IMG/VR virus record: IMGVR_UViG_3300046028_005277 | From: a virus | Length of the DNA stretch: 64,000 bases | Strand: one strand, 5' to 3' | In this document: in pieces, positions 21,470-44,545 of the stretch | Layout: each line of letters starts with the position of its first letter | Numbering within the stretch: the first letter of the stretch is position 1 | Program-made: the position numbers and the translations under genes | Notes under the pieces: generated by a model | What the model was told of the DNA's origin: nothing | Databases searched by the model: none | The model's input: the letters and a program-made list of their open reading frames with translations, nothing else

Positions 21470-21834
21470 GCAAACTAAAAGACTTTTTGGTAGAATGGCA
21501 CGAGGGACTTCTTGCCCCTATTTATTTTTTAGCCTTCATCCTCCTGTACAATTACATAAGCATATGGCTTCACGATGAAGCTGCTGCCCTCTATCCCATT
21601 GGAAGGTATGTTGATGTTCTGTCTGTTCCATCCCGGTACTACATTGTTGTTGTATTAGGAACGCTAGGCTTCAGGATCAACACGCCCTCCCTGTTCAAGG
21701 CTATATTCGGGGACAGAGCCAACGGAAAACTCCGTGACAATATTGTTAAGGACAATCATTTCCAAACGCTATGGCTCGCATTATTCTCCTATGGATTGCA
21801 CTTACTTATAGCGGCCTTGGTGTCGCTCAAATAG
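21466..21834 (+). CDS. Three-TM membrane protein, holin candidate
   Basis: Three hydrophobic segments; immediately upstream of the endolysin. Confidence 0.55.
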   Translation: MSKLKDFLVEWHEGLLAPIYFLAFILLYNYISIWLHDEAAALYPIGRYVDVLSVPSRYYIVVVLGTLGFRINTPSLFKAIFGDRANGKLRDNIVKDNHFQTLWLALFSYGLHLLIAALVSLK

Positions 21835-22280
21835 AATGTGTTAGGAAGCAAGCTTCCTCCCTAATTGGCACTCGTGAAGGGCCAATAAACAATCGTGGCC
21901 CTCGTGTTGATAGCATCATCCGTTACGCAGGAGGAATCCCTAGTCAGCCTTGGTGTAGCTACGCAATGATTTACATTTTCAAGAAGTGTGGCTCTGTTTT
22001 CAAGGGTGTAAACGGAGCAGCTAAGTCATGGGCAAGGAAGGAGAAGGCTGTTGTCATGATACCCATTCGTGCTACAGATGTGTTCACTGTCTACAACAAG
22101 GCTCTTGGAAGGATAGGTCATGTCGGCCTTGTCTATCAAGTGTATCCTGAGGAGAGGTTCTTCCAATCCTTTGAGGGGAATGTGAATGCCAGAGGGGATA
22201 GGGAAAGTCACAGGTCTATGGCAGGATGCTTGATAAGGGAGTACGCTGTATCGAATGGCTTCTACAGGTGGGCAAAATAA
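21771..22280 (+). CDS. CHAP-domain endolysin with signal peptide
   Basis: PWCSY (Cys), GHVGLV (His), FEGN motifs; hydrophobic N-terminus MARIILLWIALTYSGLGVA-Q. Confidence 0.8.
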   Translation: MARIILLWIALTYSGLGVAQIECVRKQASSLIGTREGPINNRGPRVDSIIRYAGGIPSQPWCSYAMIYIFKKCGSVFKGVNGAAKSWARKEKAVVMIPIRATDVFTVYNKALGRIGHVGLVYQVYPEERFFQSFEGNVNARGDRESHRSMAGCLIREYAVSNGFYRWAK

Positions 22281-22281
22281 A

Positions 22282-22307
22282 AAAGGGAAGCAATGCCTCC
22301 CCTCTTT
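22282..22307. terminator. Bidirectional terminator between convergent operons
   Basis: AAAGGGAAGC-AAT-GCCTCCCCTCTTT with A tract before and T tract after. Confidence 0.55.
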
Positions 22308-22338
22308 AAATAACCCTAAATTACAATATTCAAAACTA

Positions 22339-24273
22339 TTAACTTTTTGGTGGATTTAAAATATTGTCCACCATTTGTATCCTCTGGCCAATCCATCTCA
22401 TTACCGGAACTGCCATTGAGTTCCCACAAGCCTTGTACCTTGGCCCATCAGGGCATTGGTCGGCAGGCTTGTTTCTGTATGGAATCTTTGTCCATCCACG
22501 AGGGAATCCCTGTAAAATTTCCGTCTCAAATGGGGTTAATCTTCGGATTGCACAAGAGGTCTGTGTTGATTTACTTTCACCAACAAAGGATTCCCATGTG
22601 TTTTGAACCTTTGATAATGCTTGTCGCAATAACCCAAACCTTTCATCGGCTTCCCACAAATCGTGCATGAACCTTTTGTTCTGTGGCTTTTCATGTGGCA
22701 ACTCCGACAAATACGCTCTAAGTTCTCCAATGTATTGTTCAGATAGTTTCCATCCTTGTGATGTACATCCTTCGCATCCAGCTTCCCGCAATGACTGCAT
22801 GATCCAAGCGGAATCATTTTCCTTGCATGATAATGAGCCGTAGATGAACCTACTATCGGAGAATGTCGCTGGTCGAACATCAATCCCATGCAAATCTGAT
22901 TGCAATATTTGCGTCGATTGAAGTGTATTAAATACTCCAAGTCCCCATTGGGCAAACGCTTTCGTTCCAATTTTTTCTCGCAGTATTGACAATGTTTTAA
23001 CGGAGTCTCTTTCTTGTGTGCGCCCATGATTTATACCTTTATACGCAAAGGTATCATTAAAGGGGTTAGCCTCCAAAACATTTTTATATGCAACTCCGTG
23101 TGGCCCTTTTGCAACAAGCGATGGCATTGTTTCCCCTTGCGTTATCTTGATGTCATATTGAGCATTTGCTCCCTGATTGAAAGCTGCTCTGTCAATGATT
23201 GTCGGTTGAACAATTGCCTGTGTAGTTCTTACATCTCCAACATCAAATGTGTTTATGGTGTTAGCCTTATCATCCTCCACCCAGGTTTCGTGATCATCCT
23301 TGCTCTGCGCCCTCTTGGTTTTCCGATATGGGACAGGTTGTGCTATCTGTTGATCTTGTGTAGTGCCAATGGTAAATACCTTTTCATCCTGACCAAGGTA
23401 TCCCTTGCCTGCTTTCTTCCCCGGAGTACCACCTTGCTCACCGGTTTCAGTTTCAGAACCTCCTCTCACTTTGAATGCGTGGGCGGGGTGAGAAACAAAT
23501 AGCCCACACTCACTCCCCGCAGGGCCACCGCTTCCTTTGTGCCATTTACTTGTTACCGTGTCTGAGCATTCGGGGTTACTTCCCCAGTATTGGCTACCGC
23601 CTCCAACGCCTCCTTGAGCATCTGCGGAAGTTGCTTTCCTCTTTTCTCTGCTCTTCGTAGTATCCCCCTGCAAGCGGTTGCGCTCAAATAATACCGCTGC
23701 GGGAGGTCTCCAATCTCCAAGGTATCCGATAACAAAGATTCGCTTGCGTCGCTGTGCAACCCCGAAATCTTGAGCATCAAGCATTGTCCACGCAACTCCG
23801 TAGGCTGAGGAGATTCCTTCGATGCATCCTGAGTTAGTCCAACCTCCGACAGGGGCTTGAATGTCCCTGCCTGTGAGCAGTCCCAAAAAGCTTGCAAAGT
23901 CTCCTCCCTTATTACTGGATAGGACACCGGGGACATTTTCCCAAACCACCCACCTTGGACGCTTTCTTGCAGCAAGTTCAACAAAGGTGAGCATGAGTTG
24001 ACCACGAGAGTCGTCCAATCCCTTTCGGAGACCGGCAACGGAGAAGGATTGGCAGGGGGTTCCCCCCACGAGAAGGTTAATTGTTGTCCCATTGAAATGT
24101 TCTGTATTATGTATTTGTGTCATATCTCCCAAGTTTGGCACAGTTGGGAATCTGTGGGCTAACACTGCCGAAGGGAAGTGTTCTATTTCTGAATACCATT
24201 GGGCTTGCCATCCCAAGGACTCCCAGGCTACAGAAGCTGCTTCTATGCCCGAACATACTGATCCATACTTCAT
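22339..24273 (-). CDS. dcm: C5-cytosine DNA methyltransferase with long multi-TRD variable region
   Basis: Motif I CSGIEA, IV GTPCQSFS, VI ENVPG, VIII QRRKRIF, IX RRLTPFETEILQGFP, X YKACGNSMAVPV. Confidence 0.92.
   Translation of the reverse strand: MKYGSVCSGIEAASVAWESLGWQAQWYSEIEHFPSAVLAHRFPTVPNLGDMTQIHNTEHFNGTTINLLVGGTPCQSFSVAGLRKGLDDSRGQLMLTFVELAARKRPRWVVWENVPGVLSSNKGGDFASFLGLLTGRDIQAPVGGWTNSGCIEGISSAYGVAWTMLDAQDFGVAQRRKRIFVIGYLGDWRPPAAVLFERNRLQGDTTKSREKRKATSADAQGGVGGGSQYWGSNPECSDTVTSKWHKGSGGPAGSECGLFVSHPAHAFKVRGGSETETGEQGGTPGKKAGKGYLGQDEKVFTIGTTQDQQIAQPVPYRKTKRAQSKDDHETWVEDDKANTINTFDVGDVRTTQAIVQPTIIDRAAFNQGANAQYDIKITQGETMPSLVAKGPHGVAYKNVLEANPFNDTFAYKGINHGRTQERDSVKTLSILREKIGTKAFAQWGLGVFNTLQSTQILQSDLHGIDVRPATFSDSRFIYGSLSCKENDSAWIMQSLREAGCEGCTSQGWKLSEQYIGELRAYLSELPHEKPQNKRFMHDLWEADERFGLLRQALSKVQNTWESFVGESKSTQTSCAIRRLTPFETEILQGFPRGWTKIPYRNKPADQCPDGPRYKACGNSMAVPVMRWIGQRIQMVDNILNPPKS
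22536..23027 (-). CDS. Zinc-finger HNH endonuclease nested in the +1 frame of the methyltransferase
   Basis: CQYC...CNQIC; CSHC...HHKDGNYLNNTLENLERICRSCHMKSH; CTIC...GYCDKHYQR...GNP; ATG start preceded by its own promoter. Confidence 0.88.
   Translation of the reverse strand: MGAHKKETPLKHCQYCEKKLERKRLPNGDLEYLIHFNRRKYCNQICMGLMFDQRHSPIVGSSTAHYHARKMIPLGSCSHCGKLDAKDVHHKDGNYLNNTLENLERICRSCHMKSHRTKGSCTICGKPMKGLGYCDKHYQRFKTHGNPLLVKVNQHRPLVQSED
23046..23077 (-). promoter_or_regulatory. Bacteroidota sigma-A promoter embedded in the MTase ORF, upstream of the HNH
   Basis: Minus strand TTTG-N20-TACCTTTG, 18 nt upstream of the HNH ATG. Confidence 0.7.
23553..24092 (-). CDS. Alternative-frame MTase subunit (M.EcoHK31I beta-like)
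   Basis: 179 aa in the +1 frame; SLLSDTLE...PQRYYLSATACRGILRRAEKRGKQLP...L motif. Confidence 0.75.
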   Translation of the reverse strand: MGQQLTFSWGEPPANPSPLPVSERDWTTLVVNSCSPLLNLLQESVQGGWFGKMSPVSYPVIREETLQAFWDCSQAGTFKPLSEVGLTQDASKESPQPTELRGQCLMLKISGLHSDASESLLSDTLEIGDLPQRYYLSATACRGILRRAEKRGKQLPQMLKEALEAVANTGEVTPNAQTR

Positions 24274-24572
24274 TCTTTTATTGGTTCAAATTCGTTCATG
24301 TGATCAATGAATCTTTCCCTCTCCTCAGCAGGGAGGTCATACAAGTTCCACACCATATTGACAATGGCTGAATTGATTTCATCCTCAGCTTGTGCCATCT
24401 CTGGGCCAAGTCCTTTGTGTAAATACTTCTCAAATTCTGTAGCGTGATGCATCAGTCTATTGAAATGCATCTTGGCTTCCATCTTGAGAGACTTGTCTCC
24501 GTAGTGGATGACAGTTCCCGATTCTATTACGCCTCTGACAAAGCAGAAGAACTTAGAAAAATCATTTTTCAT
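24270..24572 (-). CDS. Hypothetical protein
   Basis: ATGA-coupled to the MTase start. Confidence 0.6.
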   Translation of the reverse strand: MKNDFSKFFCFVRGVIESGTVIHYGDKSLKMEAKMHFNRLMHHATEFEKYLHKGLGPEMAQAEDEINSAIVNMVWNLYDLPAEERERFIDHMNEFEPIKE

Positions 24573-24903
24573 TTTCAAACTTGGCTATGAATGGTTGATA
24601 CAATTCTCTGCTCTTGGTGAATAAAAGGCTCATGCCATTTCGGAACACCACCTTTGCTGTAGTGTTGTCAGCATTGGCTACACAATACACTTGGTTAAGG
24701 TTAACCAAATAAGACTTGTGTGGCTTAATCAAAGAAGGGAATGCCTGCATAGCAGATGCCAATGTCCCGTGCGCCCTTATAGGCTCCTCAGAATTCAGGG
24801 TGTAGATGAGGTGATAGTCCTTATCCTGCTCCACGAATGTAACATCCTTTTCTGTGATGTTGTAAAGGGCATTCAGCCCCTCGTACTTTCCTCTTATTGC
24901 CAT
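24562..24903 (-). CDS. Stand-alone LytTR DNA-binding protein
   Basis: GTLASAMQAFPSLIKPHKSYLVNLNQV matches the LytTR (F)xRxHxSYxVN signature. Confidence 0.75.
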   Translation of the reverse strand: MAIRGKYEGLNALYNITEKDVTFVEQDKDYHLIYTLNSEEPIRAHGTLASAMQAFPSLIKPHKSYLVNLNQVYCVANADNTTAKVVFRNGMSLLFTKSRELYQPFIAKFENEK

Positions 24904-27502: not shown

Positions 27503-27534
27503 CAAATGTAACCCACTTGATTTACAATTACAAA
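27503..27534 (-). promoter_or_regulatory. Bacteroidota promoter for the SSB-Gp157 operon
   Basis: Minus strand TTTG-N20-TACATTTG, a perfect consensus. Confidence 0.8.
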
Positions 27535-40065: not shown

Positions 40066-40098
40066 TTTGGAATTGTGAAATAACTTAGCCTATCTTTG
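40066..40098 (+). promoter_or_regulatory. Bacteroidota promoter
   Basis: TTTG-N21-TATCTTTG. Confidence 0.8.
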
Positions 40099-44134: not shown

Positions 44135-44519
44135 CAGAAAGCCATCTCCAAAGCCTCGTGTGGCAAGGACTCGCAACTCAGGAAGCGAAACACAAAGTAT
44201 GCATATGGGCAAAATCAGAAGTGCCTTGCGAAACATTTCCCGTTGGTGGAAGCCTTTCTCTGTTGCTTTAAAAGAAGCCTCGCACACGACATTCTCAGGA
44301 AAGGCGAAAAGGGTGTTATACCAATGTGCTGTGTGCAATAAGTTACACGGCAGAAAGAATGTGGAAGTGAATCACATTATTCCTGTTGGAAGTCTTAAAA
44401 CATATTCAGACCTACCAGGCTTCTGTGAGAGGTTGTTCGTTGAAGATGTTGCTCTTCTTGAGGTGGTTTGCAAGGACTGCCACGCAGTAATAACAAGCGA
44501 GCAGAGAAAGAAAATTTGA
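44124..44519 (+). CDS. HNH endonuclease
   Basis: YQCAVC...VEVNHIIPVG...LEVVCKDCH. Confidence 0.75.
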   Translation: MKNSRKPSPKPRVARTRNSGSETQSMHMGKIRSALRNISRWWKPFSVALKEASHTTFSGKAKRVLYQCAVCNKLHGRKNVEVNHIIPVGSLKTYSDLPGFCERLFVEDVALLEVVCKDCHAVITSEQRKKI

Positions 44520-44545
44520 CTTGTGAAATAATTGCAGTAGTTTTG
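44515..44545 (+). promoter_or_regulatory. Bacteroidota promoter
   Basis: TTTG-N19-TAGTTTTG. Confidence 0.75.

Follow-up and report, generated by a model that had tools for sequence, protein, structure and literature searches.

The locus and its two overlapping genes

The window analysed here is a stretch of 64,000 nucleotides (nt) of viral DNA (IMG/VR record IMGVR_UViG_3300046028_005277), in which a gene for a C5 cytosine DNA methyltransferase (MTase) contains, in another frame of the same strand, a second and complete open reading frame (ORF) that encodes an HNH endonuclease. The nuclease ORF lies on an insertion that the MTase frame reads straight through. The features that matter to the argument are given below with the evidence for each in brackets; omega is the ratio dN/dS of nonsynonymous to synonymous substitution, and AF2 stands for AlphaFold2.

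22339..24273, minus strand: C5 cytosine DNA methyltransferase of 644 residues, a single uninterrupted ORF (ORF listing, PF00145)
22552..23088, minus strand: inserted element of 537 nt (179 codons) between ...GPHGVA and AIRRLTP..., in place of 21 nt (7 codons, TQQPPTM or similar) (protein and nucleotide alignments)
22536..23027, minus strand: nested HNH endonuclease ORF of 163 residues with an ATG start, in the +1 frame within the MTase (ORF listing, Pfam, PHROG, alignment, AF2, omega)
22536..22551, minus strand: 3' end of the HNH ORF overlapping host motif IX, where the codons of AIRRLT also supply the four final whole codons of the HNH, a split fifth and its stop (..QSED, then stop) (sequence, nucleotide alignment)
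22355..22551, minus strand: 3'-terminal part of the MTase gene, with motifs IX-X, gained with the insert as a co-conversion-like block (mosaic nucleotide identity, omega 0.04)

The product of the outer gene was matched by PF00145 in Pfam (7e-45) and by phrog_116 in PHROG (1e-81), and the motifs characteristic of the C5 class, I, IV (PCQ), VI (ENV), VIII (QRR.R), IX (RRLTP.E..LQGFP) and X (GNS.AVP), were all found in a single frame. Motifs I-VIII (residues 1 to about 190) are followed by a long variable region, then by the insert and finally by motifs IX-X. In an AF2 model of the whole MTase the predicted local distance difference test score (pLDDT) exceeded 90 for residues 1-198 and about 577-644, which correspond to the catalytic domain and motifs IX-X.

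A first-pass annotation of this DNA had reported that a 163-residue HNH ORF lies wholly within the C5 MTase ORF on the same strand, that it joins an N-terminal zinc finger, an HNH core and a C-terminal zinc finger, and that its TAA stop is formed inside codons of motif IX. All three statements were borne out. The offset between the two starts (24273-23027 = 1246, or 1 modulo 3) places the nested ORF in the +1 frame. Its product has an N-terminal four-cysteine zinc finger, a core of the form DVHH...N...NL..ICRSCH...H and a C-terminal zinc ribbon, C..CG...KG.G.C.KH, and matches PHROG 1271, 'HNH endonuclease', at 2.2e-10; Pfam HNH_3 or HNH was recorded for several of its homologues. An alignment of 25 HNH sequences revealed invariant residues at C13, C16, C42, C46, C77, C80, H89, H90, N102, C107, C110, H111, H115, C121, C124, C134 and H137, which include the catalytic and metal-binding residues of the HNH (His-Me finger) superfamily (H89, H90, N102, H111 and H115) and its cysteine pairs (C77/C80/C107/C110). 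The AF2 model of the nested protein (mean pLDDT 88.4) has strands at 87-90 and 103-106 and a helix at 108-115. Foldseek gave weak HNH matches to this model (4h9d, 5h0m and 6ghc), and a sequence search of the PDB with the nested protein gave no match. The stop lies in the context ...GCA ATC CGA AGA TTA ACC CCA..., in which TAA arises when the TTA-ACC (Leu-Thr) of AIRRLTP is read in +1.

Boundaries of the insertion and the mosaic gene

The limits of the insertion are fixed by relatives that lack it. The MTases P0181-P0186, which are 83-93% identical in protein to that of the window, are without the insert and read ...GPHGVA-TQ(Q/K)PPTM-AIRRL(T/L)P..., and the 537 nt are likewise missing from three further loci (L098, L099 and L100) compared by nucleotide alignment. 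From these alignments the filler in the MTase, put at about 185 residues in the first-pass annotation, was corrected to about 179 codons replacing 7. The HNH ATG lies 61 nt into the insert, and at the 3' end of the insert 0 nt fall outside the ORF.

Nucleotide identity to invaded and uninvaded alleles changes abruptly along the gene. Upstream of the insert, identity to the uninvaded alleles reaches 96.6% for L100, 89.6% for L099 and 83.5% for L098, whereas the 3' end of the gene (22355..22551) is just 72-76% identical to the same three alleles, with 72% for L100. From 23079 to 22355, that is, over the insert together with the 3' end of the gene, there is a single contiguous match of 82.6% to the invaded relative L005, the N-terminal part of which is 71-81% identical to the window, in patches only. 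Similarity to the uninvaded relatives ends at 23090 and similarity to L005 begins at 23079. The insert and the 3' end of the gene arrived as a single block from another lineage, and the resulting mosaic is the expected trace of homing with flank co-conversion, or of an equivalent recombination.

Both frames are kept open

The nested protein served as the query for gathering homologous loci from IMG/VR, GTDB genomes, GenBank phages and assemblies. Full-length HNH homologues were present at 76 loci, representing 63 unique sequences, with a locus GC content of 28-68% (32-64% for the HNH ORF) and identities down to 38%. The MTase frame, which lies one base upstream of the HNH frame, was open over the entire HNH ORF at all 76 loci, and the third frame was open at none of them.

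The openness expected by chance was estimated by permuting synonymous codons inside each HNH ORF, with 2000 shuffles for the window. Shuffled sequences had 2.3-16 stops per locus in the MTase frame (mean 7.3), against an observed 0 in 63 of 63. For the window an average of 9.2 stops was expected and none was observed, and not one of the 2000 shuffles left the frame open. The probability of an open frame was at most 0.057 at any locus, with a median below 5e-4. Stops in the third frame, by comparison, agreed with the shuffles across the loci (in the window, 12 against 11.2 expected). Since the MTase frame is open far beyond the expectation from the shuffles, the choice of codons in the HNH gene must be constrained to keep that frame passable.

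Both ends of the nested ORF were also compared across the 63 unique loci. An ATG occupies the aligned start position in 60 of them. In the window a stop in the HNH frame sits two codons 5' of this ATG, so that a long frameshift fusion with the N-terminus of the MTase is impossible there; independent initiation is the simplest route to translation of the nuclease. At the other end, the five residues that the MTase frame encodes around the HNH stop are RRLT plus one further residue in 36 of the 63, with RRLV or RRLI variants at a few further loci, and the stop made by the Leu-Thr codons of RRLT may be TAA, TGA or TAG. The uninvaded allele L098 already has AGATTAACC in this part of motif IX, into which the 3' end of the HNH ORF extends.

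Selection in the two frames

Nucleotide entropy at HNH codon positions 1, 2 and 3 was 0.87, 0.85 and 1.34. When the window was compared with its nearest invaded relative, L005, the HNH frame gave a dN of 0.095, a dS of 0.85 and an omega of 0.11, against an omega of 1.3 for the overlap within the insert read in the MTase frame. Motifs IX-X, which code for the MTase only, gave a dN of 0.056, a dS of 1.37 and an omega of 0.04, and among invaded alleles they show 95% amino acid identity against 82.6% nucleotide identity. The same ranking was found over 80 gap-free pairs, with a median omega of 0.20 in the HNH frame, 0.91 in the MTase frame and 1.45 in the unused frame. For diverged pairs, the excess of identity over a synonymous-resampling null was 0.052 in the filler and 0.032 in the unused frame. 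One clear exception in the filler is a Trp, which 95% of sequences preserve by having T at a wobble position of the HNH frame. Purifying selection acts on the HNH protein and the C-terminus of the MTase; for the 179-residue filler, with few exceptions, selection is essentially for openness alone.

The proposal of the first-pass annotation, a splice-free overprint, is upheld by these results: both frames are open in every homologue, with no frame-0 stop at any of the 76 loci, purifying selection acts on the HNH and not on the filler (omega 0.11 against 1.3), and close relatives without the insert exist.

Distribution of the family

The family is not confined to the relatives of the window. One search returned more than 237 HNH clusters, mostly of about 163 residues, and one search returned 59 MTases carrying the filler; members occur in alpha-, beta- and gammaproteobacterial and in acidobacterial contigs. 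Staphylococcus phage CUB-EPI_14 has an HNH of the same family at the identical site and in the same +1 frame of a very different C5 MTase. Its HNH is 57% identical to that of the window, against 24% for the MTases.

Interpretation

The locus is best read as a mobile HNH homing-endonuclease element that has entered a phage C5 MTase gene just upstream of motif IX, without any splicing and with the host gene kept by dual coding; the probability of this reading is put at about 0.8. The insert, being a multiple of three in length (537 nt), with the nuclease gene in +1 and with codons that keep the MTase frame free of stops, would let a ribosome pass from the variable region through a largely unconstrained filler of 179 residues into motifs IX-X and so yield a full-length enzyme. 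The MTase would probably remain active, the filler being placed at the junction of the target-recognition region and motif IX. The nuclease would be produced separately from its own internal ATG and, in co-infections or in prophages, would cut or nick insert-free MTase alleles near the conserved sequence of motif IX, after which recombinational repair would copy the element along with flanking co-conversion. Membership of the homing class is suggested by comparison of sequences, namely by the patchy distribution, the fixed site before motif IX in two C5 MTase backbones and the co-conversion-like mosaic.

A number of observations weigh against this reading. In the AF2 model the filler and the entire variable region of the MTase have a pLDDT of 27-64 with scattered helices, and the model is therefore silent on how the MTase tolerates the filler. 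The Pfam matches of the nested ORF (HNH_3 at 6.6e-5, DZR_2 and HNH) do not reach the gathering cut-offs, and a Foldseek search of the PDB with its model, a multi-domain model with a predicted template-modelling score (pTM) of 0.47, gave zero matches at E<=0.001. HNH identity and MTase identity are correlated across the loci (Spearman 0.67), so that the element may owe much of its spread to vertical descent along with the MTase gene, and its transfer is not free of constraint. Metagenome contigs at the locus, from four runs, had the invaded allele only, and the insert-free joint was not seen among them. The single contig from an RNA library that covers part of the insert (freshwater metatranscriptome, run X26) is 161 nt long, lies within 22823-22992, is chimeric, switching strand, carries a single C>T difference at 22915 and is indistinguishable from DNA carry-over.

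The nuclease might instead be a domesticated partner of the MTase, blocked for example by the methylation of the MTase itself, so that the gene would act as a one-gene restriction-modification or allele-drive unit, or as a weapon against unmethylated competitor or host DNA. This is thought rather unlikely. Strong selection on both the linked HNH (omega 0.11-0.20) and the 3' part of the MTase (omega 0.04) speaks for such cooperation, as do the correlated divergence of the two proteins and the very large and mostly intact family, an unusual state for an element that is purely selfish and should decay once fixed. The patchy presence of the element among near-identical MTases, its gain as a block with flank co-conversion, the one conserved insertion site that is always used, even in an unrelated C5 MTase backbone, and the existence of decayed copies are, however, typical of homing. 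Functional coupling could also take a form to which a slightly smaller chance is given, in which the HNH spares DNA methylated by its own host enzyme and attacks unmethylated or insert-free genomes of rival phages, the one ORF then being a self-propagating drive akin to restriction-modification. If true, this would explain why the element keeps the MTase intact (the avoidance of stops and the omega of 0.04) rather than disrupting a dispensable gene.

Two further explanations deny that an active enzyme is made by simple read-through. That the enzyme is inactive, with stops avoided only because transcriptional polarity or decay of the mRNA would otherwise leave the nuclease or downstream genes less expressed, is very improbable. 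The low folding confidence of the filler and the entire variable region would suit it, as would three loci (L052, L056 and L037) at which the invaded MTase is broken upstream of the insert and still open across it, but an omega of 0.04 in the motifs beyond the insert is unexpected for a dead protein. Hardly credible at all is that the element is spliced, as an unrecognised intron or an atypical intein, with an open MTase frame that is incidental or serves protein splicing only. It is true that group I introns are the usual carriers of homing HNH genes, and that a genuine intein at motif IV of MTase P0223, the aligned part of which, covering 37% of the 415-residue query, is 97% identical to that of the window, shows that such elements do reach the gene. 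Rfam, however, gave no intron and no other RNA family in 21800-24800 at E<=1, the 61 nt outside the ORF are too short for a ribozyme core, and an intron gives no cause for avoiding stops in the exon frame, yet all 63 unique loci avoid them. An intein is opposed by the absence of any Hint or intein-splicing domain in a Pfam search of the MTase-frame peptide, by the junction residues (the insert starts with Tyr and ends with Cys, and is followed by Ala, or by Ala or Gln across the loci, and not by Cys, Ser or Thr) and by an omega of about 1 in the filler, a value that a conserved splicing domain would not allow. The earlier remark that no intron or intein boundary could be seen thus stands.

Comparison with known systems

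Intron-encoded and free-standing HNH homing endonucleases of phages, such as I-HmuI of SPO1 or the mobE-type genes that split nrd genes, share with the element described here an HNH with zinc-finger DNA-binding modules, a highly conserved coding site as the point of insertion, a patchy distribution and flank co-conversion. However, they reside in a self-splicing intron or divide the host gene into separately translated pieces, whereas the host ORF of the window is continuous and unspliced.

Hidden nucleases of the present kind were described in mycobacteriophage DNA methylases, where the ShiLan domain, a read-through insertion of 202 residues, hides an HNH endonuclease that is encoded out of frame (Arsenault, Gosselin and Gogarten, Genes 2025, PMC11855218; earlier PMC9957025). 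An intron or intein was not detectable and in-frame structure prediction was poor (PMC11855218). The family comprised nine BLASTP hits, all of them phage methylases (Table 1 of PMC11855218), and an annotated example is gp54/gp55 of phage Applejack (PMC12613952). The kind is defined in that study (PMC11855218) by presence or absence among close alleles, a stop-free host frame, a shifted-frame HNH with zinc fingers and the lack of an intron or intein, and each of these four was found in the window. In both systems the host frame reads through, zinc fingers flank the shifted-frame HNH, signatures of an intron or intein are absent, the MTase-frame peptide is without a known domain and has a low-confidence, partly helical prediction, and the stop at the 3' junction stands in a TAAC context. 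For ShiLan a resemblance of the first residues of the insert to residues past the insertion site was reported; visual inspection of the window and of L008 did not show it.

The ShiLan host is an N6/N4 methylase (PF01555 for Applejack gp54), whereas that of the window is a C5 methylase (PF00145). The ShiLan HNH lies in the third frame, starts with GTG 18 nt into the insert and has 195-208 residues, whereas that of the window lies in the second (+1), starts with ATG 61 nt in and has 163. Nine hits contrast with hundreds of members of the window family, spread across several bacterial phyla and their phages. Applejack gp55 can be aligned with the window HNH over the catalytic core only (28% over 80 residues, pairwise E 0.008), and tblastn with the window HNH did not retrieve the ShiLan HNHs. 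Placement of the window HNH in the ShiLan family was rejected on account of the core-only similarity, the different host superfamily and the different frame offset. The ShiLan study (PMC11855218) contains no codon-level or dN/dS test, both of which were run here for the window family.

A second and unrelated hidden nuclease-like ORF, also in a read-through insertion of a phage methylase, is that of Pacc40 gp60 (PMC11855218). It too is out of frame, as in the window, but its host is a fusion of a helicase with an N4/N6 methylase and the hidden protein is AP2/HNH_3-like. A tblastn comparison of the hidden protein with the window HNH gave nothing below E = 4.9, and a Pacc40-type assignment of the window HNH was rejected for this lack of similarity. 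A cyanobacterial dnaX intein also harbours a homing endonuclease that is encoded out of frame (bioRxiv 10.64898/2026.09.14.751524), and there, as here, the endonuclease ORF shares nucleotides with a stretch of host-protein coding sequence in another frame. The surrounding intein, however, splices itself out of the protein, whereas the MTase of the window has no splicing domain and apparently retains the filler. The kind has been known since 2025; the window family, and its presence in C5 MTases, appear to be undescribed in the literature searched.

At least three independent HNH lineages, in two methylase superfamilies, use splice-free dual coding, which extends beyond the mycobacteriophages as a widespread route for homing endonucleases into conserved genes. 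The window family provides a clean natural case in which the codon choice of one gene is set by the need for another open frame. A conserved 'domain' of many phage Dcm-type enzymes (...EAFAQWGLG...LHG...CEGC..QGW..SEQL...LSEL...) is better annotated as the shadow of an HNH gene than as an MTase domain. Gene callers that allow one ORF per stretch overlook the nuclease or mis-split the MTase, as in PGAP-style calls for Phenylobacterium and Methylorubrum.

Other observations on the family and the window

In two such genomes (L006 and L009, from Phenylobacterium and Methylorubrum) the public calls consist of a 156-residue HNH and a 'DNA_methylase' fragment of 70-106 residues, with about 1.2 kb left uncalled, and the MTase frame of 641-651 residues is open from end to end. 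These calls are a systematic annotation artefact that results from dual coding.

Decayed elements were seen at two loci. At L074:2970-3311 only the last 37 HNH codons are left, the junction reading GFDASE and then G, and the deletion also took most of the variable region. At L068:2912-3365 HNH residues from about 104 to 163 persist, with an MTase remnant of 151 residues.

Komagataeibacter phage phiKX1 (L103:360-2019) has an unannotated, distant HNH relative (35% identity over 115 residues), which stands shortly before motif X and in +1 relative to an open C5-MTase-like frame. A variable region of WPTP repeats and motif IX lie in yet another frame (367-1497), and the locus is either a multi-frame gene or a gene damaged by frameshifts.

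Other nucleases have also entered MTases of this group. P0052 (874 residues), which has the filler that shadows the HNH, contains an additional in-frame HNH_3 / zf-His_Me_endon insertion at residues 337-419 of its variable region, and so holds two different nuclease insertions in one MTase. P0223 and P0222 have a canonical Hint and LAGLIDADG intein at the catalytic Cys of motif IV, between GGTPC and CQSFS, and Hint_2/Intein_splicing was detected by Pfam in P0223. From this it follows that at least two kinds of selfish element visit the MTase lineage of the window.

Genes for a portal protein, a large terminase and a primase-helicase are present elsewhere in the window. Lake-water metagenomes contain DNA near-identical to it, which identifies the window as the genome of a freshwater phage.

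The leader of the element

The 61 nt between the 5' end of the insert and the HNH start contain several possible expression signals.

23028..23088, minus strand: 5' leader of the element, 61 nt, which doubles as MTase-frame filler (sequence)
23047-23054 and 23033-23040, minus strand: 8-bp inverted repeat, ATACCTTT/AAAGGTAT (sequence)
23036-23039, minus strand: AAGG, a Shine-Dalgarno-like motif within the 3' arm of the repeat, 9 nt before the HNH ATG (sequence)
23046-23077, minus strand: candidate promoter of the Bacteroidota type TTTG-N20-TAnnTTTG, here TTTG-N20-TACCTTTG (pattern match)
27503-27534 (minus strand), 40066-40098 (plus strand) and 44515-44545 (plus strand): further matches of the promoter pattern (pattern match)

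The hairpin folds in the window with an energy of -13.3 kcal/mol (z = -2.1), and the motif GATACCTTG...AAGGTATC was found again 5' of the nuclease start in many loci that differ from the window in GC content. In an alignment of 47 leader sequences, 66.5% of cells were consistent with pairing, against 63.4% in shuffles, with weak covariation, and RNAalifold found no consensus structure in the same alignment. The promoter pattern has four matches in the window against 1.47 expected, a number reached by 6 of 100 shuffles, and the -7-like part of the match in the leader coincides with a motif whose conservation extends to high-GC proteobacterial loci. The hairpin and the internal promoter are regarded as leads and not as findings. 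Linked to the unlikely reading in which the two enzymes are functionally coupled is the possibility that translation of the HNH is tied to that of the MTase through the hairpin, which would bury the AAGG.

A second nested ORF in the MTase gene

The MTase gene contains another ORF in the +1 frame, away from the insert.

23553..24092, minus strand: beta-like nested ORF of 179 residues in the +1 frame, over MTase motifs IV-VIII (ORF, conserved block)

Conservation of the C-terminal block of its product, ..LSDTLE..P.RYYLS..AC.GILRRAEKRGK.LP.., extends over 63 of the loci gathered, among them the insert-free L002 and L096, and the ORF is always in +1 wherever the MTase frame can be compared. At E<=0.001 its product matched 3111 cluster representatives, mostly of 160-230 residues. 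The M.EcoHK31I enzyme consists of a C5 MTase alpha chain and a beta chain whose coding sequence lies within that of alpha but in another frame (PMC2836561), and the product of 23553..24092 looks like this alternative-frame beta chain. In both cases a C5 MTase gene encodes a second polypeptide in an alternative frame. The beta chain of M.EcoHK31I is an enzyme subunit, neither a nuclease nor a mobile insertion, and the likeness concerns 23553..24092 and not the HNH. Taken together, the HNH and the beta-like ORF cause 1032 of the 1935 nt of the MTase gene to be read in two frames, so that more than half of its nucleotides encode two proteins. In P0301, P0304 and P0359, and at L095, a shift of the alpha frame leaves the beta-like ORF fused in frame with the variable region and motifs IX-X of the MTase.

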